A stretch of 64,000 nucleotides of DNA. Origin: a virus. Lineage: Duplodnaviria; Heunggongvirae; Uroviricota; Caudoviricetes. The translations under genes were made by a program, and so were the position numbers. Every line of letters begins with the position of its first letter. Positions within the stretch are counted from its first letter, which is position 1. The stretch lies in the IMG/VR virus record IMGVR_UViG_2671180984_000014. The stretch is one strand, 5' to 3'. This document shows positions 4,701 through 62,771 of the stretch, in pieces. The notes under the pieces were generated by a model that worked only from the letters and a program-made list of their open reading frames with translations, was not told the DNA's origin and ran no database searches.

Positions 4701-4831
4701 GCGCGCCAAACATCAGAGAGCTTTATCATGACAGTGGCTTCAGAGTGGAACCTCTTTTTGCCAGACGTTCTGTGTCTTGTAAGGGGGACACTCGAGGTGT
4801 AGCTCATGACGTTTTGGGTATATTGCTCTAA
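1790..4831 (+). CDS. dmt: bifunctional DNA methyltransferase (C5-cytosine MTase fused to Dam-family N6-adenine MTase), intein-containing precursor
   Basis: 1013-aa uninterrupted frame; C5-MTase motif I (SVCSGIEAA), split motif IV (GGTP / CQAFSIAG), motif VI (VWENVPG), VIII (QRRRRVF), X ([13 protein letters not shown]); C-terminal ~270 aa with FKWAGGK and FCDPPYEP of Dam-class MTases. Confidence 0.85.
2021..3043 (+). mobile_element. intein with LAGLIDADG homing-endonuclease domain, in frame inside C5-MTase motif IV
   Basis: 341 codons starting with Cys (CFTAGHMVL), block B TxxH (RTTNDHPF), two LAGLIDADG-like blocks ([21 protein letters not shown]), terminal VVHN followed by +1 Cys; removal restores [12 protein letters not shown]. 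Confidence 0.8.
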
Positions 4832-4849: not shown

Positions 4850-5012
4850 ATTACCTCAATGAATCGTGATTTATAGAGCGATTTAGCTGTTAGCCGCGAC
4901 AGGCGCGGCGGTAAGCATGGCTGGGCCTAGTCCTCCCAGACAAACCACCGAGTTGCCAGGTTGACCATGCGCCTAAGTGGCAACGCCGAAGTGCGTTACG
5001 AGCGTCCAGTTT

Positions 5013-5038
5013 GCCCATCTTCGGGTGGGCGTTTTTTT
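5013..5038 (+). terminator. rho-independent terminator
   Basis: GC-rich hairpin GCCCATCTTCGGGTGGGC followed by GTTTTTTT. Confidence 0.55.
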
Positions 5039-5220
5039 CAGGGTTTTCGTCATGGTTAGCGACTTTGCGGCGGTTTAGAAACTGACCATTAAAGTAAATG
5101 CAAACGATGATCTGATGATGGTAGCGGCCTAAGAAGCCAGATGCCATGGGGTATGAGTCGTCCCCCGTCAAAAAATCGACCGCAGAGTGTCCCCGTCTGT
5201 GTATTAGGGAACGGGGAGGC

Positions 5221-5300
5221 ACAACAGGTAAGGGCGCTGGTGTGATTAACCAGATGAACGAGAAGGGGCCATCTGTTGGTCAGCGTCCTTTCCTGTTGCG
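5221..5300 (+). repeat. stem-loop module, upstream member of a four-copy family
   Basis: ACAGGTAAGGGCGCTG ... CAGCGTCCTTTCCTGT imperfect inverted repeat followed by TGCGTTTTC; related to modules at 5753, 6113, 6395. Confidence 0.35.
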
Positions 5301-5503
5301 TTTTCTTTTCAGCGTAACAGCGGTGCTTAACAGCACTTTGGGTACAGTTCCACGAATTTACGGGTATATCCCGTCATGCTGAAGGCGCTAATCACGCTGG
5401 AAGCCAGGGTTATGCATCCCCTGTTACCGAATTGCAGCCAGGGCGCGGTGCGCCGAAAAGCATACGGAGGTGGAAGCCCTCGCCGGAGACGTACCCGGCA
5501 AGT

Positions 5504-5578
5504 GATGGTGTAGCTCAGCGGTAGAGCAGTTGGCTGTTAACCAACTGGTCGGTAGTTCGAATCCACCCACCATCGCCA
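5504..5578 (+). tRNA. trnA: tRNA-Asn (anticodon GTT)
   Basis: cloverleaf: acceptor GATGGTG/CACCATC, D-arm GCTC-AGCGGTA-GAGC, anticodon stem GTTGG/CCAAC with loop CTGTTAA, T-loop TTCGAAT, encoded CCA. Confidence 0.7.
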
Positions 5579-5583
5579 CTTTA

Positions 5584-5670
5584 GGGGAGTTAGTCCGTAG
5601 GGGTAGCGGGGTAGACTGTAAATCTACTGTCATTGCGACTCGGGTGGTTCGACTCCATCACTCCCCACCA
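5584..5670 (+). tRNA. tRNA-Tyr-like (anticodon GTA), long variable arm
   Basis: acceptor GGGGAGT/ACTCCCC perfectly paired, anticodon stem GTAGA/TCTAC with loop CTGTAAA, long variable arm, T-loop TTCGACT, encoded CCA; D-arm less canonical. Confidence 0.55.
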
Positions 5671-5674
5671 CATT

Positions 5675-5750
5675 GCCGATTTAGCTCAGTTGGTAGAGCA
5701 GTCGCTTTGTAAGCGAATGGTCAGCGGTTCGATCCCGTTAATCGGCACCA
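5675..5750 (+). tRNA. trnT: tRNA-Thr (anticodon TGT)
   Basis: acceptor GCCGATT/AATCGGC, D-arm GCTC-AGTTGGTA-GAGC, anticodon loop TTTGTAA, T-arm AGCGG-TTCGATC-CCGTT, encoded CCA. Confidence 0.8.
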
Positions 5751-5752
5751 AC

Positions 5753-5830
5753 ATAACAGGTAAGAGCATTCTCCCTTATGGGGCCTGGCTTAAATGCATC
5801 GAGTGCTCTTACCGTTGTGATGAAGTGCAG
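5753..5830 (+). repeat. stem-loop module, copy 1
   Basis: 10-bp inverted repeat GGTAAGAGCA ... TGCTCTTACC followed by GTTGTGATGAAGTGC. Confidence 0.45.
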
Positions 5831-6112
5831 ATCTTAGAAGCAACCAGAAGATAAGCATCTGGCTTCACAACATAAACCGCAGGAACGACCAATAAACGGT
5901 AGTCCGTATGGAGAACACCCCGTTGAGGAAGAGGCCTGGCCGGAACCGTAACCGGCGACTGGTAATGTGTGTAAATGGAGCGAAATATGTGGGCGTTTAA
6001 CGGGATACGGGTTGTAACAGCGATTATTAACGGCGAACTTAAGTATTCACGTTTCGAGACAAATGAACGTGATGGGAAATGTATTGGTGTGCGGTTAGTA
6101 AGAGAATACGCA

Positions 6113-6225
6113 TAACAACTACAACGTTGAGAACACTGGCGTAACGGGGTCATATCCCAATCTACGAATAAATGTTGCGTTGCCGCGTGACAACCAGTGT
6201 TCTCAACATTGTGGTGAATGCACAG
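6113..6225 (+). repeat. stem-loop module, copy 2
   Basis: perfect 14-bp inverted repeat GTTGAGAACACTGG ... CCAGTGTTCTCAAC; loop contains GTAACGGGGTCATATCCCAATCTAC; followed by ATTGTGGTGAATGCAC. Confidence 0.45.
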
Positions 6226-6394
6226 GCTGATGTGCCGCAACTACAGTAGTGCGCGCTTTGCGGGGCTTGCTACAACCCTGTGTCGGAGTTCAGCACCGAC
6301 CATCACAGTTTGATTCTCTGGCATGAGCATAACGCTGAAATAAGTCCAGTCTGGTGCGGTCTGATCACCCGCCGTTAGCTCCACGAAACGGAGC

Positions 6395-53820: not shown

Positions 53821-54939
53821 TCACTCAGCCGCTACTGGTTTTAACAAACCAGCATCAAGTAGCTTGCGAGTTAACCACTGCTGGCCTTTACCCGTTAATT
53901 GGGGCGTCAGCCGTATCTGGTAACCATCTTCATCATCCAGCACCACTTCTTTCACCGTGAAATACCCGGCGTTGATGTATTGCTGGAACGGCACATTTTT
54001 ACGTCCACCGGACGCTATCAGGATGCCGTTCTCCCGTAACCAGGCAAACAACGCGTTTTGCTTAAGCCCAACAACCTTTGCAAAATTTCCAATCAGGATC
54101 CCCTTGGCCACTGATACCCGGTCGGCAAAATCGACCTTAGGAGCGGCGGCCACCAGCTGCTGATTTAGCTGGTGGGCTTTCTGTTCCAGAAGTTGCTTTT
54201 GTTCAGCCAGTTCGGCAGCCAGGCGCAGAGCTTCTGGAAGCGTCTGGGGGATTGCAACCGGTTGCTGTTCTTTTTGCCGGAAGTAGCTGTCTTCCAGTTT
54301 TTCAAAGAATGCCCATGCCTGATCGGTTTCGAGCATTTTAGCGTGGCGGGCTGCGCCGCGTTCTGTCCAGAGGGTGAGTGAGCGAACATTGCGAGCAATT
54401 TTTACAGAGTAGTTTAAAGCTACTCTGTGCTTCAACTCGCGCAATGATTCTCCTTCAACTTTGAAAAAGTGCTTCCCTTCAACAAAGCGTACTTTGTTCT
54501 CATGATGATTTTGGCGAATACGGATTGTTTCTGTCCCATACCCTCTCGCAAGAGTCTCGGTTGTCACTACACGCACTCCCTGCCATTCCAGAACGGGAAT
54601 TTCATCAGACTGATTCTGAACAACCACCAGCTCCGATTCCTGAACTGAAGGTGCATGAATTTTTTCTAATTTAACGTTATTTGCTTTCATTCTGTGTGCC
54701 TCCTTGCGTGCTTCGGCTGCGACGGTTGCGTAATTCAGATGACCCTGTTCGAGCAGGTATTCGCGGATATCAGACAACAGGATACGGTGAACCGCGTTCT
54801 TGTCCTTTCTCCGGTAAAGTTGTTTGGTGATCATGAAGTAGTTGGCAATAACGCCAGGTATATCCCTGGTGCTGATACAGATTGTGTGCTGTTCAATTGC
54901 CTCGATCATCTCTTCACGGGTGACTAATGACGTTCTCAT
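53821..54939 (-). CDS. ant: antirepressor Ant (immI), intact copy
   Basis: 372 aa; N-terminal ORF6N/Bro-like and C-terminal KilA-C/antirepressor-like segment (KVDFADRVSVAKGILIGNFAKVVGLKQN); preceded by icd and C1 operators. Confidence 0.75.
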   Translation of the reverse strand: MRTSLVTREEMIEAIEQHTICISTRDIPGVIANYFMITKQLYRRKDKNAVHRILLSDIREYLLEQGHLNYATVAAEARKEAHRMKANNVKLEKIHAPSVQESELVVVQNQSDEIPVLEWQGVRVVTTETLARGYGTETIRIRQNHHENKVRFVEGKHFFKVEGESLRELKHRVALNYSVKIARNVRSLTLWTERGAARHAKMLETDQAWAFFEKLEDSYFRQKEQQPVAIPQTLPEALRLAAELAEQKQLLEQKAHQLNQQLVAAAPKVDFADRVSVAKGILIGNFAKVVGLKQNALFAWLRENGILIASGGRKNVPFQQYINAGYFTVKEVVLDDEDGYQIRLTPQLTGKGQQWLTRKLLDAGLLKPVAAE

Positions 54940-55501: not shown

Positions 55502-55753
55502 TCATCTTCGCCTGCGTGCCATATATTTGCGCACCGCGCGGCGTGGACAATCTGAAGCGGTTTCTTTCTGCTGCATCAATCTCGCAGCCATGCTCAAAAA
55601 AGTCAGGCACAGCCGAAGCCCGGCATACAATAGCGGTTCCAGTGGCCACGTCTCATTGAGCACATATACCGCCATGAAAATCGAGTCGAAAACTATCGCC
55701 GCCAGCGATAACTTCATTGTCGAAAGTCGGCGGAGCTGCCGGAGTTTATTCAT
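55502..55753 (-). CDS. small membrane protein downstream of lyz
   Basis: 83-aa ORF overlapping lyz stop; hydrophobic segments and Arg-rich tail. Confidence 0.3.
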   Translation of the reverse strand: MNKLRQLRRLSTMKLSLAAIVFDSIFMAVYVLNETWPLEPLLYAGLRLCLTFLSMAARLMQQKETASDCPRRAVRKYMARRRR

Positions 55754-56303
55754 TAACCAGTCCCGTCAGGCAAAGCTGGCGTTCTTTTTCACGGCGAATC
55801 TTTAAACCTCGCAGGGGCACGCCGTTACTGTTCACGAAATCAGGGAGATGGTTACACATATTCACCCATTCCCCTTTCTGCGCCCACTTGTGGATGGACG
55901 TTTCTACTCGCATGCCTCGCGCTTTGCTGTAGTAGGTCCGTAAGCTATTGCATCCCATATTGAATGCCGCGCTTGTCATTGCACTGAAGGCATTATCGGG
56001 CATGTCTTTGCCCCGGAAGTGCTGATTAATACAGCGTTCAGCGATCAGGATATTCTTTTCCCAATCAGCGGCGATTTGCTGGTCGGTTTTTCGCACGCCT
56101 GGCGTTACCCCGTGTGTATTACCAATCCCGTCAGTCCATACACCCGCCGGGCACATGTATGGATCACGTCGGCAACCTTCAGCGTTACCAATCAGCTCAA
56201 GCCCCGCCTGGTTGGTTCGCACATTGCCATTACCCATCACGATGGTAATCATCACCGCGATAGCGCAAATTGCACCGCCTCCTGCGGCTGTTTTTCCCTT
56301 CAT
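55746..56303 (-). CDS. lyz: SAR endolysin (T4-lysozyme family)
   Basis: 185 aa from MKGKTAAGGGAICAIAVMITIVMG (signal-anchor-release N-terminus); ELIGNAEGCRRDPYMCPAGVWTDGIGNTHG lysozyme core. Confidence 0.9.
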   Translation of the reverse strand: MKGKTAAGGGAICAIAVMITIVMGNGNVRTNQAGLELIGNAEGCRRDPYMCPAGVWTDGIGNTHGVTPGVRKTDQQIAADWEKNILIAERCINQHFRGKDMPDNAFSAMTSAAFNMGCNSLRTYYSKARGMRVETSIHKWAQKGEWVNMCNHLPDFVNSNGVPLRGLKIRREKERQLCLTGLVNE

Positions 56304-56436
56304 AAAGACCTCATAAGCGAATTTTTTACGCTCCAGGACAAACACCCATTCACAGCCAATACCGACTGACTCGATCCCTTTAGAAGGCACAGGATAATGC
56401 AAATCACTTGTTAGCTACGTTTCAAAGATATACATT

Positions 56437-56453
56437 ATTGCTCTAATTAATTT
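56437..56453 (+). promoter_or_regulatory. C1 operator upstream of ssb
   Basis: ATTGCTCTAATTAATTT, 1 mismatch. Confidence 0.6.
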
Positions 56454-56472: not shown

Positions 56473-56961
56473 GTGGCACAACGCGGTGTAAATAAAGTCA
56501 TCCTGATAGGTACCCTGGGACAAGACCCAGATATCAGGTATATACCAAATGGCGGAGCAGTCGGAAGACTCAGCATCGCAACGAATGAATCATGGCGCGA
56601 CAAGCAAACAGGCCAACAGAAAGAGCAAACAGAATGGCATAAAGTCGTTTTGTTCGGAAAAATTGCTGAAATTGCGAGTGAGTATTTACGAAAAGGTTCT
56701 CAGGTCTACATCGAAGGGAAACTTAAAACCCGTAAGTGGACAGATGACGCCGGTGTAGAACGTTACACGACGGAAATTATCGTCAGCCAGGGCGGCACCA
56801 TGCAAATGATCGGCGCTCGCCGCGACGATTCACAGTCCTCAAATGGCTGGGGGCAGTCAAACCAACCTCAAAACCACCAGCAATACAGCGGTGGTAGCAA
56901 ACCTCAGAGCAGCGCCAATAACGAACCTCCAATGGACTTTGAAGACGATATTCCGTTTTAG
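56473..56961 (+). CDS. ssb: single-stranded DNA-binding protein
   Basis: 162 aa, GTG start; OB-fold N-terminus ([18 protein letters not shown]), Gly/Gln-rich linker and acidic C-terminal DFEDDIPF tail. Confidence 0.95.
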
Positions 56962-57163: not shown

Positions 57164-57952
57164 ATGGCAGCACAAAATACTAAAACAATTCAATACCGCC
57201 TGCGTAATGGCCAGAGTGTCGAAGTGACCATCAATAATGATGGTGTACCTGGCGAAAAGGTTTCTATCTCCGATCTGGCTATCGAAAAAACCATCATGTG
57301 CCACCTTGGCTTTACTGAAGAAGTGAGCAAAAAGCATGGTGTAGCAATCTGGAGCGCAATGGATACTGGTATGCGCAAATTCATTACTGCTCGTACCCCA
57401 GGGATGACCATGATGGACCTCATGCAGATTGCGCCGCTGTTTGAATGTGAGCCTTTAGATGTATTCAGCAATCCAGCTATCTGCCAGCAGTTATATGGTG
57501 AGGTGAAACTCGCGGTTACCCCCATTGTGCTGCATGAAGGATCGCTTGCTGGCGTGTGGAAAGTGGAGCGTATTTCAAGCTACATGCCTTTCCATGTCAA
57601 CGGCGTAATCACTGGTGAAAATCAACCTGTTTCCGTTATAAAGTCAGACCTCAAGCGCGCAATTCTTGAAGCAAGTTGTCGAGTTATCGGCCTAGGCAAA
57701 CAGTCTTATGTTTCCTTCCCGGCTGGCCCTGAAGGCCCGGCAGAAATTCTGATTATGGATGCCGATCTGCTCTGGCAAATACAGTTTCTAATTGGCAAAA
57801 GCATCATCCGAGCTGAAGAGCTCGATCAGTACATTACCTGCACGATGACGGATGAAGTCAAAAGTGTGGCTATAGCCAATGCCAGGAACCTATGTCGTGC
57901 TACATTGGCAGAACCGCAAGAAAACATTCCAGAAGAAACAGAAAGTGACTAA
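57164..57952 (+). CDS. hypothetical protein
   Basis: 262 aa from ATG 57164 (ORF track begins 57044); followed by hairpin CCCCGTCAGTTGGCGGGG. Confidence 0.4.
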   Translation: MAAQNTKTIQYRLRNGQSVEVTINNDGVPGEKVSISDLAIEKTIMCHLGFTEEVSKKHGVAIWSAMDTGMRKFITARTPGMTMMDLMQIAPLFECEPLDVFSNPAICQQLYGEVKLAVTPIVLHEGSLAGVWKVERISSYMPFHVNGVITGENQPVSVIKSDLKRAILEASCRVIGLGKQSYVSFPAGPEGPAEILIMDADLLWQIQFLIGKSIIRAEELDQYITCTMTDEVKSVAIANARNLCRATLAEPQENIPEETESD

Positions 57953-58149
57953 TAAAAACCCCGTCAGTTGGCGGGGAACTCCACGTTAAATGACCAATTA
58001 TTATGTTAGCTAGCAGTTAAAGCGCCTAGTCATTATCTCTTAAAGAAGTCTTTTTAACTTATCTAAATTAGTGACACCTCCCGTTTTGCTTGCTATGGTA
58101 TGCATTCATAAACCTATTCATTAATCTATTCACAACAGTAATTAAAACT

Positions 58150-59454
58150 ATGGCTACACATGCAACAACAATCCGTAGCTTGCTCAATCAAGGGCCTATG
58201 ACACCAAGACAATTGGTTGAAAAACTCAGTGTTAGCCAACCAACGATATCTAGAGCATTAAGAGAACTTGGTGATGAAATCGTTAGGATCGGAAATGGAA
58301 GATCTATTCAATATGCTTTACGAGACTCTTTTAGAGGATTCGAATCAGTCCCCATTTATCGTATAACTGAAGAGGGGTGTATTTGCGTTCTTGGTACTCT
58401 CATTCCGGTGAGGCCAGAAGGCTATGTTATGGTTGAGGATGGGAAAAATAACAGGCATAGCGATGGGTTACCTTGGTGGTTATTTGATATGCGTCCACAA
58501 GGCTTCCTTGGAAGAGCATATGCATCAGCATATGCTCTTGAACTTAACCTTCCCTCAAATCCAGAGCAATGGTCAGATACTGATGTGATCAAAGCCTTAC
58601 TTAAGCATGGGCATGATGTTGTTGGTAATTTGTTAATTGGAGAGCAAGCGCGCACGCATTTTTTAGAGATGCAGCCTCCTGTTCCTGTTAATCGTGAAAT
58701 TGAATATCCTGTATTAGCTTTAGCCGCTGGTGAAGGTGATGTGCCAGGTTCATCTGCTGGAGGTGAACAACCCAAATTTTGTACTTTCACAGAGCGTGGA
58801 CATGTATTAGTGAAATTCTCTGCGCCTAACGACACCCCTATAAGTGAGCGCTGGAGAGATCTCTTGTTTGCTGAACATCTCGCATTAAAAGTTCTGGGGG
58901 TAGAAACAGAAGTTTTTGATTATAACGGTCAGAGATTCTTGGAAATTCCCCGATTTGATCGTGTTGGTCAACTCGGTCGGGTAGGTGTATTCTCACTTCG
59001 TGCACTTGATGCAGAATTTGTTGGTAATGCAAGAGCAACATGGCCCTTGCTGGTTAAAGAGTTGGTAAAAAATAAGTGCGTCCATCCTGATGCGATTATT
59101 ATAGCAACAAGGCTATGGTCTTTTGGTGTGCTAATAGGCAATACCGATATGCATAATGGCAACCTATCGTTTATTAGTAGCCACGGACGCCCATATCATA
59201 TTGCTCCAGCCTATGACATGTTACCTATGGGTTTTGCCCCACGCTCTGGGGGAGCAATGTCTAATGAGCTTAGAAAAACAGCACTACCAGACTTTGTAAG
59301 TCGAAAAATATGGGATGAATCTCTTGAATTAGCTGAAAAATTTTATGCATTGGCCTGTGAGGCCGACAAATTCTCAGCTAACTTTACTCCATGTTTAGAA
59401 GCACTACGCATCCACCTAGATGATTGTAAAATACGCATAGCCCGCCTGGCATAA
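58150..59454 (+). CDS. HipA-family Ser/Thr kinase with fused N-terminal HTH (YjjJ-like architecture)
   Basis: 434 aa from ATG 58150; HTH (MTPRQLVEKLSVSQPTISRALREL); HipA motifs SSAGGEQPKF, LIGNTDMHNGNLSF, APAYDMLP; AT-rich relative to flanks. Confidence 0.7.
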   Translation: MATHATTIRSLLNQGPMTPRQLVEKLSVSQPTISRALRELGDEIVRIGNGRSIQYALRDSFRGFESVPIYRITEEGCICVLGTLIPVRPEGYVMVEDGKNNRHSDGLPWWLFDMRPQGFLGRAYASAYALELNLPSNPEQWSDTDVIKALLKHGHDVVGNLLIGEQARTHFLEMQPPVPVNREIEYPVLALAAGEGDVPGSSAGGEQPKFCTFTERGHVLVKFSAPNDTPISERWRDLLFAEHLALKVLGVETEVFDYNGQRFLEIPRFDRVGQLGRVGVFSLRALDAEFVGNARATWPLLVKELVKNKCVHPDAIIIATRLWSFGVLIGNTDMHNGNLSFISSHGRPYHIAPAYDMLPMGFAPRSGGAMSNELRKTALPDFVSRKIWDESLELAEKFYALACEADKFSANFTPCLEALRIHLDDCKIRIARLA

Positions 59455-59457
59455 ACA

Positions 59458-59488
59458 AGAAATCCCGCCAATCGGCGGGATTTCTTCA
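59458..59488. terminator. bidirectional rho-independent terminator
   Basis: AAGAAATCCCGCC-aatc-GGCGGGATTTCTT between convergent genes. Confidence 0.7.
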
Positions 59489-59794
59489 ATATACGATCTG
59501 GTCTACATGATCACCAAAATCATCGTCGTCGTCCTCATCGCCACCCTCTACTGCTGGCCAATCAACAAACCAGCCAGCGTAAAGATGCAGCGTTCGGAGA
59601 ACATCACTTGCGGGAGCATCAAGGGTGTTAACGAATCCCATATAGCTATTGGGATTTGCCCCAGCTATGGCTTCAGCGATCATGTCCTCGGTAATGTCAC
59701 CGGAGATAATGCTTAAACGCCCGGAAACTTCTTCATTATCATCAAATTCGATAATGGCATCTCCGCCTAATGGCGCTGCGATTTTAATCTGCAT
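59486..59794 (-). CDS. acidic hypothetical protein
   Basis: 102-aa ORF with poly-Asp tract; overlaps stop of upstream large gene. Confidence 0.4.
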   Translation of the reverse strand: MQIKIAAPLGGDAIIEFDDNEEVSGRLSIISGDITEDMIAEAIAGANPNSYMGFVNTLDAPASDVLRTLHLYAGWFVDWPAVEGGDEDDDDDFGDHVDQIVY

Positions 59795-62771
59795 TATTTA
59801 GCTCCTTTGCCACACCTAATAACAGTTCCAGCAATCCGTCACCATTCATCAGTGATGCGGCAGCGGCCTCTTTATCATGATACAACTGAAGAGCCATAGA
59901 GAATACTTCCGTTGCTGACGTTTTGGAAATAGTCGGTGATTTCTGCCGAATTTTCCCGGTGTTACTTACTGAGGCTGGCGGGTATACCTTCGCCATATAA
60001 ATATTACTCAATCGAGATCTGAAGCACCATTCAGGCTTGCCACGCCCACCGATATTGACGAAAGATGGCTTATCCCCTTCAACATTGGCCTTCAGGAATG
60101 ACCGGGCTTTCTCTAACAAACCAGGGTTACTGTACTCAAGATGATGACCCAGCTCGTGCCACAGTGCGCTCGCATTTTCATCGTTCAAATTGACAGCAAC
60201 AACACCATTTAGATTTGCATATGCCCTTCCCTGGTGGTGAACTACCTTTGATAAGGTCGATATTTTCCCGCCGGTCAGGCGATAAATATCAGCAAGTTCC
60301 TTGCGCAGGTCTATCCCACCATTCTGTCCAGCGCGGGCTTCTTCCACTTCTTCTGTGATAAAAGAGTCGGCCCACTCAAGAGCTTTTTCTTCAGATACGG
60401 ATGAGTTTGCGATCGCACTGTTCATGGCAGATAACACTTTCTCGTGGACCGAACCCATACTTCGCTGATTCATTTGCCAGCGTGTCTGCGGGTTATATGA
60501 GAATCGCTTAAGTAGTTGGTCAAGCTGCTCAAGTTCTTCTTCACTGACATACTTTTTAGCCTCACCAATAATGCCAGGGAGAATATTGCCGTTAGGATTA
60601 AACGCTCGCGAAAGGAAGAGTTTCAGCGCCCCCATGCCCTCCGATGCTTCTATATCACCAATAACCCGGTTAACAATGGCCGCACTCTTCGGATTAGCAT
60701 CCGCCAACGCTCTGGCTACGATTTGCAGGGACGATACGACCTCACGCTGCATATCAGTCCTGATCTCATCAATAAACTCTGGCGTTATGCCGTGCTCTTT
60801 AAGGATATCCCGGCCTTCCGCCGTTACCCCATCGATATCACCGACATGTTTATTAACACGACTTTGCAATGCCTTAAATGCCTTCAGAATTCCACGGGCA
60901 TCATCCGCTTTACTAACGGCCTTCCTGAATGCTGGCAAGAAGTCTGAGTTAACCTCATTTTGTTGATCGGCCCACTGAATGGAGGCTTCTTTCATCTCGT
61001 CCAGAGTCAGATCACCCAACGCGGTATGGTCTGTGAATATGAGCGACAACCTCTGAACCATTTCTGCCAATGGTGATGCCGAATGCGCCGCGCTAAGGAA
61101 TGCTTTCACCCTGGTTGGGCGAATGGAAAACCAGTCAATAGCTGGTGGCATATCTCCGTTTTTTATCGCCTGCGCTATCTCGTCAAAGCCATCGCGCCCA
61201 AGGGAGGATGCGTGATTTAACAAGCCGCGAAGTAACGAATTGCTGATACCGAATAATCGGCACCATTTTTTCACGTCGGCAACAGGCATTCGAACAAAAT
61301 GCGCAAGCACTTGTACAAGCTGTTCATCCTGGGGATCTTTACGGGAAAGCAGCCTGATCAGATGAATAATGTCTTTGATGCCGGATGCTCGATGTAATAG
61401 CAAACTGGTATATGGAGCAACACCGTTGTAACTACCGCCGGAAGCTGACTCGAAAAGACCGCCGGATATCCCTTGCATACCTTCGTTTTCCAGTTCCTGA
61501 GACACCTGGCGAAGGATATCCTGTAACGACACATCACCACCGCCAAACATATCCCCCAGCGCCTGGCCCTGGTGCTGTAACTCATCATTGATACGTTGAG
61601 CCATCAACTTAAAGGCGGTGGCCATACGCTTCGCGCTACGGTTATTCGCGACGATGAACAACGCGAGTGCTTTCACTTCCGGGGCCGTTTCGCTGAACAT
61701 ATCCCCCTGAGCAATAACATCGGTAATATGCTGGCCTGACTCCTTCGATTGCCTTACCAGGTCTACCGCATCTTTCAATGCCGCCAGCGCCTTTTTATCG
61801 AGGCTATCCGCTGTCTCAATGCCATCAACAATAGTTGTCACAGCCTGCTTGTGCGCTTCTCCTGATAAAGCCTGCATCTGGACAAAATCATTGGCTGCCG
61901 CATTAAGCGCCGTCAGAACATTACGCATATCCGGATCAGGTTCTTCTGCAACCATCCTTACCAGGCGCGCATCCTTATATGCCTTGGCAAAGATCGCGTT
62001 TTGTATACGGTCAACAAGTTGCCGCGTTGGTCGCCCATCTTCCGTTACAAGGCCAGCCGCCTGTGTGGCACCAACTTGCGTCATAAATCCGCGAATAAAC
62101 GCGTCATTACTGCGGCTAAGCAGATCTCCGCTTTCTGACGGGTTAAAAAGCGCCATCATCGCCGGTGTTATGCTGTCGGCATCAACAAAAGCCTTTTCAC
62201 TGGCTGCCATTTCCTGAAGATCAGAAATATTTGAGTCCTTGGCAAACTGAACGCGGTCAACCTTGGTTAACCGGCGGCGCACCAGTACCGGAGCCGTCAT
62301 TGATTCAACCTTTTCAGGTCGTATGCCGAATTCGGTCGCATGATCAATCAGGTACTCACGATACCGATCCGCATTGCCGTCCTGATAGGCTTTGATGATC
62401 CCCATGGTCCGTCCATTACCTGACTCAACGGCATTGTCCTCACCAATTATCGGCGCACCATGGCTGGATAAACCGGAATCAGTAAGCTGAGCAGGCCGCA
62501 AATCTTTGGATATCTGGTTAACCTGAAGAAGGCTGGATGCGCGGGTCCGGTCGCGCGGCTGAAGTTCCTGGGGATAGTCAGGATTAATTTTCCCATCCAG
62601 AGTATTGGATACCAAAAGAGCTGAGGCATCGACGATATCAAACGCTGTTTTTACCTCGTCTCCCTTCGCTGTCACCACATACGAAACCCGCCCATAATCG
62701 GGCAGGTTCTTTAGCAGCTCGATCAGCGTTTCTATGCTGGTGGCCATTACCACCTGATCGCTTAAGCTCAT
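59784..62771 (-). CDS. large hypothetical protein with HExxH motif (possible virion-associated dar-operon protein)
   Basis: 995-aa ORF; C-terminal LWHELGHHLEY zincin-like motif; assignment to a named P1 gene not secure. Confidence 0.4.
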   Translation of the reverse strand: MSLSDQVVMATSIETLIELLKNLPDYGRVSYVVTAKGDEVKTAFDIVDASALLVSNTLDGKINPDYPQELQPRDRTRASSLLQVNQISKDLRPAQLTDSGLSSHGAPIIGEDNAVESGNGRTMGIIKAYQDGNADRYREYLIDHATEFGIRPEKVESMTAPVLVRRRLTKVDRVQFAKDSNISDLQEMAASEKAFVDADSITPAMMALFNPSESGDLLSRSNDAFIRGFMTQVGATQAAGLVTEDGRPTRQLVDRIQNAIFAKAYKDARLVRMVAEEPDPDMRNVLTALNAAANDFVQMQALSGEAHKQAVTTIVDGIETADSLDKKALAALKDAVDLVRQSKESGQHITDVIAQGDMFSETAPEVKALALFIVANNRSAKRMATAFKLMAQRINDELQHQGQALGDMFGGGDVSLQDILRQVSQELENEGMQGISGGLFESASGGSYNGVAPYTSLLLHRASGIKDIIHLIRLLSRKDPQDEQLVQVLAHFVRMPVADVKKWCRLFGISNSLLRGLLNHASSLGRDGFDEIAQAIKNGDMPPAIDWFSIRPTRVKAFLSAAHSASPLAEMVQRLSLIFTDHTALGDLTLDEMKEASIQWADQQNEVNSDFLPAFRKAVSKADDARGILKAFKALQSRVNKHVGDIDGVTAEGRDILKEHGITPEFIDEIRTDMQREVVSSLQIVARALADANPKSAAIVNRVIGDIEASEGMGALKLFLSRAFNPNGNILPGIIGEAKKYVSEEELEQLDQLLKRFSYNPQTRWQMNQRSMGSVHEKVLSAMNSAIANSSVSEEKALEWADSFITEEVEEARAGQNGGIDLRKELADIYRLTGGKISTLSKVVHHQGRAYANLNGVVAVNLNDENASALWHELGHHLEYSNPGLLEKARSFLKANVEGDKPSFVNIGGRGKPEWCFRSRLSNIYMAKVYPPASVSNTGKIRQKSPTISKTSATEVFSMALQLYHDKEAAAASLMNGDGLLELLLGVAKELNNAD

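Follow-up and report, generated by a model that had tools for sequence, protein, structure and literature searches.

A HipH/YjjJ-type HipA-superfamily kinase gene as cargo in variable region 2 of a P1-like phage-plasmid

Results

The cargo island and its slot

The window, i.e., the whole stretch of 64,000 nucleotides analysed here, derives from a P1-like (Punavirus) phage-plasmid which carries a HipH-type kinase gene as cargo (Table 1). The island that holds this gene has a GC content of 0.421 compared to 0.483 across the whole window, in line with the AT-rich island described in an earlier note on this DNA, and the GC3 of the hipH coding sequence is 0.297 vs. 0.485 for ssb, 0.456 for isaA and 0.497 for ddrB. 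In DNA alignments, homology to P1 and 813R1 stops at the isaA stop codon and restarts on the right side at the hxr stop codon (P1, P7 and 673R5) or at about 59455 (813R1). The flanks are 97–98% identical to P1, P7, SJ46, 813R1 and 673R5, whereas the cargo differs.

The slot between the conserved backbone genes ssb/isaA and hxr/ddrB corresponds to the published “variable region 2” of P1-like plasmids, which is variable and of low GC content (PMC9603915). It is occupied by IS1 and isaB in P1 (in the order isaA-IS1-isaB-hxr), by the nmpC porin gene in P7, by a dGTPase defence gene in 673R5 (PADLOC, 8.6e-87) and by a gene for a 356-aa protein in 813R1, which shares the right terminator hairpin with the window. 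In all of these relatives, backbone homology is broken at the same points, and the gene content of the slot is unrelated to hipH. Consequently, the earlier proposal of a cargo insertion site holds, and the IS1 insertion of P1, which had been placed only roughly in this area, lies exactly here. Neither a transposase nor an integrase gene was found in the island, nor a target-site duplication at its borders; recombinational exchange within the conserved flanks would explain this most simply.

With respect to the flanking genes, the isaA-like gene product has no Pfam domain. The large convergent gene that had been described as the neighbour is ddrB, which is indeed large and convergent; the immediate neighbour, however, is the small hxr gene, with ddrB beyond it. 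Similarly, terminator hairpins had been suggested on both sides, and only the right one proved strong: its folding energy is −22.4 kcal/mol on the + strand and −23.6 kcal/mol on the − strand (z = −6.9 and −5.7), and no shuffled sequence folds as well. The left hairpin is at best a weak isaA terminator, because its U-tract is present on the minus strand only.

Table 1. Features of the hipH island and its flanks (positions in the window).
Feature	Position	Strand	Description
ssb	56473–56961		C1 operator at 56437–56453 (Ossb)
isaA-like backbone gene	57164–57952	+	Left flank; phrog_2326; downstream of ssb
Cargo island	57953–59485		isaA stop (57952) to hxr stop (59486); about 1.5 kb; one gene inside
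Left hairpin	57959–57976		7-bp GC stem; −13.3 kcal/mol, z = −1.65 (+ strand)
Sigma-70-type promoter candidate	58071–58099	+	−35 GTGACA (58071–58076), −10 TATGGT (58094–58099); consensus scan
Direct-repeat array	58101–58136	+	Unit about TCTATTCAnnAA; three units; ATTCA cores at 58104, 58116 and 58128; exact 12-bp spacing
hipH/yjjJ-type gene	58150–59454	+	434 aa; predicted HipA-superfamily Ser/Thr kinase toxin with N-terminal winged HTH, single chain
Winged HTH	58159–58329	+	aa 4–60; recognition helix S29-Q-P-T-I-S-R35
Gly-rich (P-loop-like) loop	58747–58779	+	G200-SSAGGEQPK-F210; GSSAGGEQPKF invariant in 30 homologs
Catalytic motif	59137–59172	+	GNTDMHNGNLSF; aa 330–341; D333-M-H-N-G-N338 invariant in 30 homologs
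Mg2+-binding motif	59203–59217	+	APAYD; aa 352–356; Y355-D356 invariant in 30 homologs
Bidirectional intrinsic terminator	59457–59486		Perfect 13-bp stem between the convergent hipH and hxr stops
hxr backbone gene	59486–59794	−	Right flank; 102 aa; phrog_2292
ddrB	59784–62771	−	After hxr; ddrB-ParB Pfam 2.1e-39

Start codon and product of hipH

The longest open reading frame at this position covers 58090–59454 (+) and begins with a TTG, which was rejected as start codon: RefSeq/PGAP uses the ATG at 58150, the start that had also been chosen in the earlier note, and the homologs all align to this ATG. Moreover, TTG 58090 is not the real start because the reading would cross the promoter and the repeat array. 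In a second allele of the gene, an A-to-G change gives an in-frame ATG at 58108, which accounts for the annotation of 448 aa in one record and for the 448-position PHROG profile. A Shine-Dalgarno sequence is absent before hipH.

The 434-aa product matches NCBIfam NF007297 (“HipA family toxin YjjJ”) as a full-length equivalog, reaching 530.6 bits vs. a cutoff of 401, with aa 4–434 aligned to model positions 3–446 of 446. In BLASTP, it is colinear with HipH of Escherichia coli K-12 (b4385) at 35% identity (E = 2e-89), and its nearest relatives, about 70% identical, are 434-aa “YjjJ” proteins of Pantoea, Enterobacter, Serratia and Gibbsiella. Among the Pfam profiles suggested for a first check, HipA_C was found (6.4e-16), whereas Couple_hipA and HipA_N gave no match to the protein even at E = 0.1; hhalign to K-12 HipA likewise covers aa 231–359 only. 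An AlphaFold model built from 30 sequences, each of at least 67% identity, reached a mean pLDDT of 63, and the best 35 PDB matches retrieved with it in Foldseek were all HipA, HipT or CtkA kinases. This mediocre model therefore recovers the HipA/HipT fold, whose absence would have spoken against a HipA-type kinase, and is uninformative on the packing of HTH and kinase.

The N-terminal winged HTH is matched by the Pfam profiles HTH_5 (6.5e-6) and MarR (8.2e-6) at aa 4–43, has a pLDDT of 82–90 and gave Foldseek matches to ArsR/CzrA/SmtB/MarR folds. It is colinear with the HTH of K-12 HipH and fused to the kinase in one chain, as had been read from the sequence before. The three kinase motifs pointed out at that time (GSSAGGEQPKF, GNTDMHNGNLSF and APAYD) are all present and intact. 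S201 and S202 of the Gly-rich loop align with S200 and S201 of K-12 HipH and do not vary among the aligned homologs. According to hhalign against HipA and BLASTP against HipH, D333 corresponds to HipA D309 and K-12 HipH D342, with N338 present too, and D356 to HipA D332 and K-12 HipH D364. Judged by its sequence, the product is thus a full-length HipH-family member, in which a kinase core is fused to a winged HTH.

HipH/YjjJ is a known and partly characterised family (PMC8262856, PMC9948734), corresponding to clade X of Gerdes 2021; kinases of this type, antitoxin-free and with a fused HTH, received their name in 2021, and a partial characterisation followed in 2022–2024. The architecture which the earlier note described without a name is that of this already named family. 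The identification is a solid but ordinary finding, as the protein family has been described and the RefSeq label of the gene is already yjjJ.

Promoter candidate and repeat array

The sigma-70-type promoter candidate upstream of hipH has a 17-nt spacer with a TG. Homologs of hipH from Enterobacter, Gibbsiella, IMG/VR contigs and Comamonas are preceded, at identical positions, by a GTGAC(A) element and a TAnnnT box. These conserved −35 and −10 elements lie directly upstream of the direct-repeat array, of which a fourth unit (58137–58148) has degenerated in the window copy. The 64-kb window contains a single copy of the pattern ATTCA-N7-ATTCA-N7-ATTCA, at an expected number of 0.00. Among the 37 loci examined, three or four TCTATTCA repeats at an exact spacing of 12 bp directly precede the start codon of 27 hipH loci; apart from K-12, which is also counted, these array-bearing loci have at least 47% identity, and five of them were fetched after the pattern had been defined. 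Each array-bearing locus contains the array once, or twice overlapping, and no other occurrence was found within the 37 loci.

The two alleles found on P1-like plasmids differ at 12 upstream positions, none of them in an ATTCA core. In homologs that carry the ATTCA array, the recognition helix keeps the sequence SQPTxSR. A Polaromonas homolog featuring the helix SRATLMR has GTTTCA repeats, likewise at 12-bp spacing. This joint pattern of helix and repeats suggests that the TCTATTCA array is probably the operator of the fused HTH. A point against it is that the homologs from Aeromonas, which are about 55% identical and have an unchanged recognition helix, have a single ATTCA upstream. No description of the conserved array upstream of hipH was found in the literature searched, and it is new here. 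A further point against this operator is that winged HTH proteins of the ArsR/MarR type as a rule recognise palindromes rather than direct repeats of 12 bp. In favour of autoregulation, Reg-Seq revealed two repressor sites in the K-12 yjjJ promoter (PMC7567609); ChIP-exo of tagged K-12 YjjJ gave zero binding sites, its own promoter included (bioRxiv 10.1101/2021.06.10.447994); in view of this latter result, the array could be bound by another factor.

Antitoxin and C1 control

In agreement with the earlier statement that no HipB-like antitoxin gene is adjacent, neither the 197-nt upstream gap nor the 31-nt downstream gap contains an antitoxin-sized ORF. No Rfam match reaches the gathering score, the best one being the terminator hairpin itself. 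A hidden antitoxin, i.e., a small ORF or an RNA, was rejected on the grounds that the gaps offer no plausible ORF and that the Rfam scores are far below gathering. In fact, the gene is monocistronic, with the P1 backbone genes isaA and hxr as neighbours and no linked hipB, and it lacks the co-transcribed upstream hipB of a canonical HipBA system. Control by the phage repressor C1 was rejected as well: of 19 matches to the C1 operator in the window none lies after 56453, the nearest one being Ossb, and none was found in or near the island.

Distribution and selection

In RefSeq, a yjjJ annotation is present in about 30 out of a total of about 487 P1-like plasmids (about 6%), while about 94% are without the gene. 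The ORF is intact in the about 30 records, which originate from humans, pigs, poultry, salad and wastewater. Two alleles exist, separated by 15 synonymous and 9 non-synonymous changes at a synonymous divergence of 5%, which gives a dN/dS of 0.18; hipH is hence under purifying selection on P1-like plasmids. Based on the intact ORF in these plasmids and on this dN/dS value, we count the gene as functional.

Beyond P1-like plasmids, megablast and tblastn found no homolog in the deposited phage genomes of INPHARED, and PHROGs contains a near-identical family of unknown function. HipH homologs were found in IMG/VR viral contigs, in one case (L023) between terminase/portal and tape-measure genes and in another (L029) adjoining a DnaB helicase gene. 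Of six chromosomal contexts, a single one, that of a 70% homolog, adjoins a defence system (type I restriction-modification); the other five are cus/HBL, invasin/AraC, flagellar, fimbrial/MFS and deoD-lplA. An association of the chromosomal homologs with defence islands was rejected on this count. At the DNA level, blastn with word size 11 found no similarity to the chromosomal hipH of E. coli.

Discussion

The arrangement described above likely represents a horizontally acquired, monocistronic cassette in variable region 2, consisting of its own promoter, the repeat array, the coding sequence and a terminator, which would act as HipH-family toxin kinase module with putative autoregulation. 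The gene would be transcribed from its own sigma-70 promoter, in the lysogen too, and the fused winged HTH may bind the TCTATTCA repeats that lie, spaced by 12 bp, downstream of the −10 box and ahead of the ATG; acting on this array, the HTH would take over the operator-binding role of HipB in cis. Repeat binding could, together with the absent Shine-Dalgarno sequence, keep the toxin level low, and autophosphorylation at S201/S202 might damp the kinase further, as in HipA, HipT and K-12 HipH. At a higher level or activity of the kinase, host proteins would be phosphorylated (CsrA and L31 in the case of the K-12 homolog), and division and growth would stop. For the prophage, the benefit may be protection from other phages or a stress-tolerant lysogen, or there may be none.

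A defence role of the window HipH is plausible but unsupported. Some HipA-family kinases do act in phage defence, as stated in the earlier note, e.g., in HipAD/DS-6, where the kinase is required (PMC13092281), in PDC-M66 and, as HipA with DUF3037, in Retron-Sda1 (PMC12548924); for HipH itself, the present analysis gave no tie to defence. It seems unlikely that HipH is a single-gene anti-phage system which is silent in the lysogen, becomes activated by another phage and protects lysogens by arresting or killing the cell. This explanation would fit the dGTPase defence gene in the same slot of 673R5, the 70% homolog next to a type I restriction-modification system, the recurrence of HipH homologs in viral contigs and a promoter of its own without C1 operator, which would allow expression of hipH in the lysogen. 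Those HipA systems whose role in defence has been validated, however, consist of two genes, one of them for a DUF3037 partner, and none lies beside hipH. Moreover, no PADLOC model matches significantly, the best E values (5e-4 to 8e-3) concerning the HTH or, at about 1e-3, the 30-residue catalytic motif only. Further points against it are the five of six chromosomal contexts away from defence systems, the lack of a homolog in any INPHARED phage genome and the missing experimental support for a link between HipH and phages. Quite unlikely in our view is a one-protein immunity/toxin module, in which the winged HTH is an autorepressor on the array, becomes released by an incoming-phage or DNA-damage signal and the kinase then arrests the cell. 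If true, this would be a single-chain, prophage-borne abortive-infection system excluding competitors, and it would explain the control of the antitoxin-less HipH family.

For the K-12 protein, a different mode of toxicity was proposed, namely an HTH-dependent DNA cleavage with c-di-GMP as small-molecule antitoxin. According to Liao et al. (2024), deletion of the catalytic motif leaves K-12 HipH toxic while deletion of the HTH abolishes toxicity, and purified HipH-GFP cleaves plasmid DNA, which is inhibited by binding of c-di-GMP (Kd 7.6 µM; PMC11452175); DNA degradation and RecA induction were also seen by Gratani et al. (PMC9948734). As an account of the gene studied here, a genotoxic DNase is nevertheless very unlikely: Pfam, NCBIfam and fold searches gave no nuclease domain or motif, kinase-dead mutations lowered the toxicity of K-12 HipH (Gratani et al.), and the assayed protein is only 35% identical to that of the window. 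In addition, a dispensable kinase would hardly account for the invariance of the kinase residues in 30 homologs and for the purifying selection. A lytic-cycle kinase for host takeover, expressed upon induction or infection, mainly by read-through from the C1-repressed ssb-isaA operon, and reprogramming host translation and metabolism to the advantage of the phage in the manner of T7 gp0.7, is highly improbable. The co-orientation of hipH with ssb-isaA, a hairpin after isaA without a U-tract on the + strand, the C1 operator of ssb and the targets of the K-12 homolog, CsrA and a ribosomal protein, would agree with it; the gene, however, has its own conserved promoter and array, also in non-phage chromosomal copies, is absent from about 94% of P1-like plasmids and has a foreign composition, and relatives carry other, unrelated cargo in this slot. 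A plasmid-addiction module stabilising the phage-plasmid by post-segregational killing has in its favour that plasmids commonly contain toxin-antitoxin modules and that P1-like prophages are low-copy plasmids. HipBA on a Klebsiella plasmid is likewise reported to be a stabilisation system (PMC11487325). Such killing, however, needs a labile plasmid-encoded antidote, which is lacking here, a survey of P1-like plasmids names phd-doc as a conserved toxin-antitoxin system of theirs (PMC9603915), and most of these plasmids are without hipH, so that we give hardly any credence to addiction. The same holds for an inert passenger, i.e., a hitch-hiking or decaying gene functionless in the element. Its rarity (about 6%), foreign composition, lack of a Shine-Dalgarno sequence and lost fourth repeat unit would be expected of such a gene; the ORF is, however, intact in about 30 records from diverse sources, dN/dS is 0.18 despite the 5% synonymous divergence between the alleles, and all catalytic and operator-like elements are kept.

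The identification alone matters little, since the HipH/YjjJ family is known and the gene is already yjjJ in RefSeq. Of interest is rather that HipH appears as recurrent phage cargo: about 6% of P1-like phage-plasmids have it, as do several unrelated viral contigs of IMG/VR; none of the papers retrieved takes up HipH as phage cargo. Moreover, the cassette travels as a unit with its promoter and the strictly spaced array, conserved as far as K-12 hipH at 35% protein identity. The control of antitoxin-free HipH is an acknowledged open question (PMC8262856), on which the conserved candidate operator bears. Given the dGTPase defence gene in the slot of a relative, variable region 2 also merits a survey as a hotspot of accessory or defence genes.

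Comparison with known systems

HipAD/DS-6 and PDC-M66 share with the window protein a HipA-superfamily kinase as toxic effector, and their defence needs the kinase. They differ in consisting of two genes, with a DUF3037 antitoxin-like partner and a kinase without fused HTH. HipA of the K-12 hipBA system is a toxic Ser/Thr kinase with autophosphorylation in the Gly-rich loop, as predicted for the window protein too; the two have the kinase core fold in common, and D309/D332 correspond to D333/D356. HipA, however, is accompanied by hipB and contains Couple_hipA/HipA_N, neither of which was found here; the window protein has a winged HTH at its N-terminus instead, and its sequence resembles that of HipA over no more than about 130 residues. 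The closest solved structure is HipT (8ezr_B; E = 1e-5 with the single sequence, 2e-6 with the profile and 6e-6 by fold) from the hipBST type of system, as known from E. coli O127 and, with HipT(Lp), from Legionella; HipH was aligned colinearly with HipT by Gerdes. HipT is a bare kinase core, which is neutralised by HipS, with HipB as separate HTH protein; in contrast, the window protein has no partner and its HTH is fused.

The K-12 HipH protein is the sole characterised member of the family, and Ser/Thr kinase activity as well as growth inhibition upon overproduction are known for this protein only (PMC9948734). It autophosphorylates at S200, S201 and S217, targets CsrA and RpmE (L31), and is less toxic in a kinase-dead form altered at positions 342 and 364 (PMC9948734), while Liao et al. 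(2024) found its toxicity to need the HTH and to be independent of the kinase motif (PMC11452175). With 443 aa it is longer than the 434-aa window protein, in which the segment with S217 is shortened by 4 residues; the window protein belongs, with its relatives of about 70% identity, to another subclade. Due to the identity of only 35%, and without similarity at the DNA level, substrates and toxicity may differ here. The location is also different, as K-12 hipH lies between deoD and lplA and the window gene in a phage-plasmid cargo slot. Nevertheless, both proteins have in common, over their full length, the winged HTH, a Gly-rich loop with two serines, the catalytic DxHxxN and the Mg-binding YD, and both genes are monocistronic, have no linked antitoxin and carry a 12-bp-spaced TCTATTCA array abutting the start codon.

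Results

Judged by its sequence, the kinase encoded in the AT-rich island of the window is a member of the HipH family, since a full-length YjjJ match, a fused N-terminal HTH and HipA-type catalytic residues coincide with the absence of an antitoxin. This family was defined as clade X, comprising monocistronic genes with an N-terminal HTH and without linked antitoxin (Gerdes et al., 2021; PMC8262856). The NCBIfam equivalog “type II toxin-antitoxin system HipA family toxin YjjJ” matched the full length with 530.6 bits (cutoff 401), and Pfam placed HipA_C at aa 201-372 (6.4e-16) and an ArsR/MarR-type winged HTH (wHTH) at aa 4-43, which bears out the claim of the earlier note that an HTH and a HipA-like kinase share one chain. 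The protein is colinear with HipH/YjjJ of Escherichia coli K-12 (b4385; 35% identity, E = 2e-89) and shares about 70% identity with “YjjJ” proteins of 434 aa from Pantoea, Enterobacter, Serratia, Gibbsiella and Pectobacterium. In a profile alignment to K-12 HipA, D333 pairs with the catalytic D309 and D356 with D332, which binds Mg; these are the positions mutated, as D342 and D364, in kinase-dead K-12 HipH. Within the Gly-rich loop GSSAGGEQPKF, S201 and S202 take the places of S200 and S201, at which K-12 HipH autophosphorylates. The AlphaFold model, for which 30 homologs were used, reached moderate confidence only (mean pLDDT 63); its best 35 Foldseek matches in the PDB were without exception HipA, HipT or CtkA kinases, and its N-terminus matched ArsR, CzrA, SmtB and MarR. 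No solved HipH structure was found, Legionella HipT being the nearest by sequence.

The surrounding window is that of a P1-like (Punavirus) phage-plasmid, with flanks 97-98% identical to P1, P7, SJ46, 813R1 and 673R5. The ORF, motifs and low GC content described in the earlier note were all recovered: GC of the island, which reaches from the isaA to the hxr stop codon (57953-59485), is 0.421, and GC3 of the hipH coding sequence is 0.297 vs. 0.46-0.50 in ssb, isaA and ddrB. ATG 58150 is the true start codon; TTG 58090 was rejected. Of the terminators proposed for both sides, the right one was borne out: its 13-bp stem is perfect (-22.4 kcal/mol, z = -6.9), folds with equal strength on either strand and sits tightly between the convergent stop codons of hipH and hxr, while the left hairpin is modest (z = -1.65) and has its U-tract on the opposite strand. 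Neither the 197-nt upstream gap nor the 31-nt downstream gap of hipH contains an antitoxin-sized ORF or a known RNA, in agreement with the earlier statement that no antitoxin gene is adjacent.

Features of the hipH region (window coordinates)
Feature	Position	Strand	Remark
kilA-type antirepressor	53821-54939	-	
lysozyme	55746-56402	-	
ssb	56473-56961	+	
isaA-like gene	57164-57952	+	
left hairpin	57959-57976		
candidate promoter	-35 58071-58076, -10 58094-58099		same site picked by promoter scan
repeat array	58101-58136	+	ATTCA cores 58104, 58116, 58128; fourth unit degenerated
hipH/yjjJ-type gene	58150-59454	+	434 aa
right hairpin	59457-59486		
hxr	59486-59794	-	convergent neighbour of hipH
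ddrB	59784-62771	-	

The C1-operator consensus of P1, ATTGCTCTAATAAATTT, has 19 matches in the window (≤3 mismatches; 0.32 expected), which span 523-56453, overlap or pair at 4822/4833 and 55459/55475 and include Ossb at 56437; downstream of 56453 the window holds none, leaving the hipH cassette without a C1 operator. A functional link of hxr to hipH is unlikely, because hxr is kept in all P1-like elements, whichever cargo they carry, and a Pfam search of the window's hxr gave no match. In P1, hxr is annotated as a possible repressor, “homolog of Xre”, and HipB belongs to the same broad HTH class; toxicity of K-12 YjjJ is reportedly rescued by HipB.

Direct repeats (unit ~TCTATTCAnnAA) with an exact 12-bp spacing separate the predicted -10 box from the hipH ATG; they are mentioned neither in the earlier note nor in the HipH literature found. 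The 64-kb window has a single copy of the pattern ATTCA-N7-ATTCA-N7-ATTCA (0.00 expected from shuffles), and across the family three or four units are located directly upstream of the hipH/yjjJ start codon. The array was found in 27 of the 37 fetched loci, always on the coding strand and ending 3-18 nt ahead of the hipH start codon, and nowhere else in these loci; carriers include K-12 hipH (L006, 9738-9766), a copy on a Comamonas plasmid (48% identity) and homologs from IMG/VR (47-69% identity). Five loci from chromosomes of Salmonella, Serratia and Pectobacterium, added once the pattern was fixed, were also array-positive; the array is missing from the slots of P1, P7, 813R1 and 673R5 and from the K-12 hipBA locus. 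It is preceded by conserved GTGAC(A) -35-like and TAnnnT -10-like boxes, and a Shine-Dalgarno sequence is absent from all hipH leaders examined.

The fused wHTH probably has its operator in this array. All array-bearing homologs examined have the recognition helix SQ(P/A)TxSR, and in a Polaromonas homolog (36% identity) the helix SRATLMR goes with GTTTCA repeats, again spaced by 12 bp; in this single case, helix and repeats covary as they should if the latter are read by the fused HTH. Two observations speak against such a pairing: in the Aeromonas copies, an identical helix is accompanied by a single ATTCA, and ChIP-exo of tagged K-12 YjjJ detected zero binding sites (bioRxiv 10.1101/2021.06.10.447994). 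Reg-Seq, by contrast, revealed two sites of repression in the K-12 yjjJ promoter, of which one was assigned to MarA and the other to no factor (PMC7567609).

Full-length copies of the island at 97-100% identity are present in 29 PLSDB plasmids, all of them E. coli replicons of ~66-117 kb (most 90-100 kb) with the gene annotated as yjjJ, and in 25-26 of 5,426 complete E. coli genomes, where every copy but one is plasmid-borne and the exception still lies in a P1-like context. As the adjacent hxr-ddrB segment is found on 487 plasmids, about 6% of P1-like elements carry the cassette. Neither DNA search nor tblastn returned a record with the cassette from the phage collection; PHROGs contains a near-identical family without assigned function. 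The two alleles differ by 15 synonymous and 9 non-synonymous changes (dS 0.052, dN 0.009) and, judging from the resulting dN/dS of 0.18, hipH is maintained by selection. In the 197-nt upstream region (57953-58149) they differ at 12 positions (6% vs. 1.8% in the CDS), none of them in an ATTCA core and one in the -10 box (TATGGT to TATTGT). An A-to-G change at window 58108 in allele 2 (L013, 2659; L014, 12159) turns ATTCATAAAC into the palindrome ATTCATGAAT and also creates an in-frame upstream ATG, which explains why one RefSeq record annotates 448 aa and why the PHROG profile phrog_30447 has 448 positions.

IMG/VR holds six near-identical loci and more distant homologs in other viral contigs, e.g., one of 53% identity between terminase/portal and tape-measure genes (L023, IMGVR_UViG_2911098371_000001, 5001-6317) and one of 39% identity adjoining a DnaB-type helicase gene (L029, 4986-6440); HipH-type kinases thus seem to be recurrent phage cargo, also outside the P1 group. 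The Serratia ficaria homolog (L034 vs. L035, 9487-15500) is located inside the flagellar region, between fliT/AraC-type regulator and fliE, and in one strain hipH is closely followed by an inserted block of ~5 kb that carries a phage holin gene and Arm-DNA-binding genes, which suggests another variable spot there.

In the alignment, backbone homology with the relatives breaks exactly at the isaA stop codon and returns at the hxr stop codon, or earlier, at the shared terminator, in 813R1. This slot is occupied by IS1 and isaB in P1, the nmpC porin gene in P7, a 356-aa protein without assigned function in 813R1 and a PADLOC dGTPase-model gene in 673R5; the cargo site suspected at the IS1 position of P1 is thereby substantiated and equals the published, low-GC “variable region 2 (isaA-IS1-isaB)” of P1-like phage-plasmids (PMC9603915). 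The 673R5 gene (L004, phage vB_EcoM-673R5, 1111-2464; E = 8.6e-87 and 4.4e-34 to the anti-phage model) may be frameshifted, being annotated as two CDS, and is adjoined by a 121-aa protein without assigned function. Since transposase, integrase and duplication are all absent at the cassette borders, exchange is most simply explained by recombination within the conserved flanks.

Discussion

Overall, the earlier observation is confirmed and its interpretation supported. The window's hipH adds a new, phage-borne gene to a family that is already known, and its hotspot, too, has been described before; RefSeq already annotates this gene type as yjjJ. The one result that deserves further work is the repeat array shared across the family, through which the control of antitoxin-less HipH kinases can be approached directly by experiment.

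The cassette is intact, selected and self-contained, with a promoter-like element, the repeat array and a bidirectional terminator, and with neither C1 operator nor antitoxin. We propose that hipH would be transcribed independently of the prophage repressor and autorepressed by the fused wHTH via the array, the wHTH thus doing in cis the operator-binding job of HipB for hipBA. Translation initiation would be weak, and the kinase could be damped by autophosphorylation of the Gly-rich-loop serines. Active HipH would then phosphorylate host proteins and stop growth and division, on the model of K-12 HipH, whose substrates are CsrA and L31 and which makes cells filamentous (PMC9948734). Since the + strand lacks a U-tract at the hairpin that follows isaA, read-through from the C1-controlled ssb-isaA operon may also reach hipH during lytic growth. 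Killing by an HTH-dependent DNase restrained by c-di-GMP, as claimed for K-12 HipH (PMC11452175), is a rival to the kinase mechanism; however, the window protein has no detectable nuclease signature and its kinase residues are invariant.

With respect to the biological role, it is highly improbable in each case that hipH acts as a lytic takeover kinase, serves plasmid addiction or is an inert passenger. A contribution to anti-phage defence is plausible and somewhat less improbable, yet still unlikely: HipH recurs in phages, 673R5 hosts the dGTPase defence gene in the same slot and HipA-family kinases are validated effectors in HipAD/DS-6 (PMC13092281) and PDC-M66 (PMC12548924), but no defence HMM matches the window protein and only one of six chromosomal HipH contexts adjoins a defence system. 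Moreover, both validated systems need a DUF3037 partner and differ in this respect from the window's hipH, which without one combines wHTH and kinase in a single protein.
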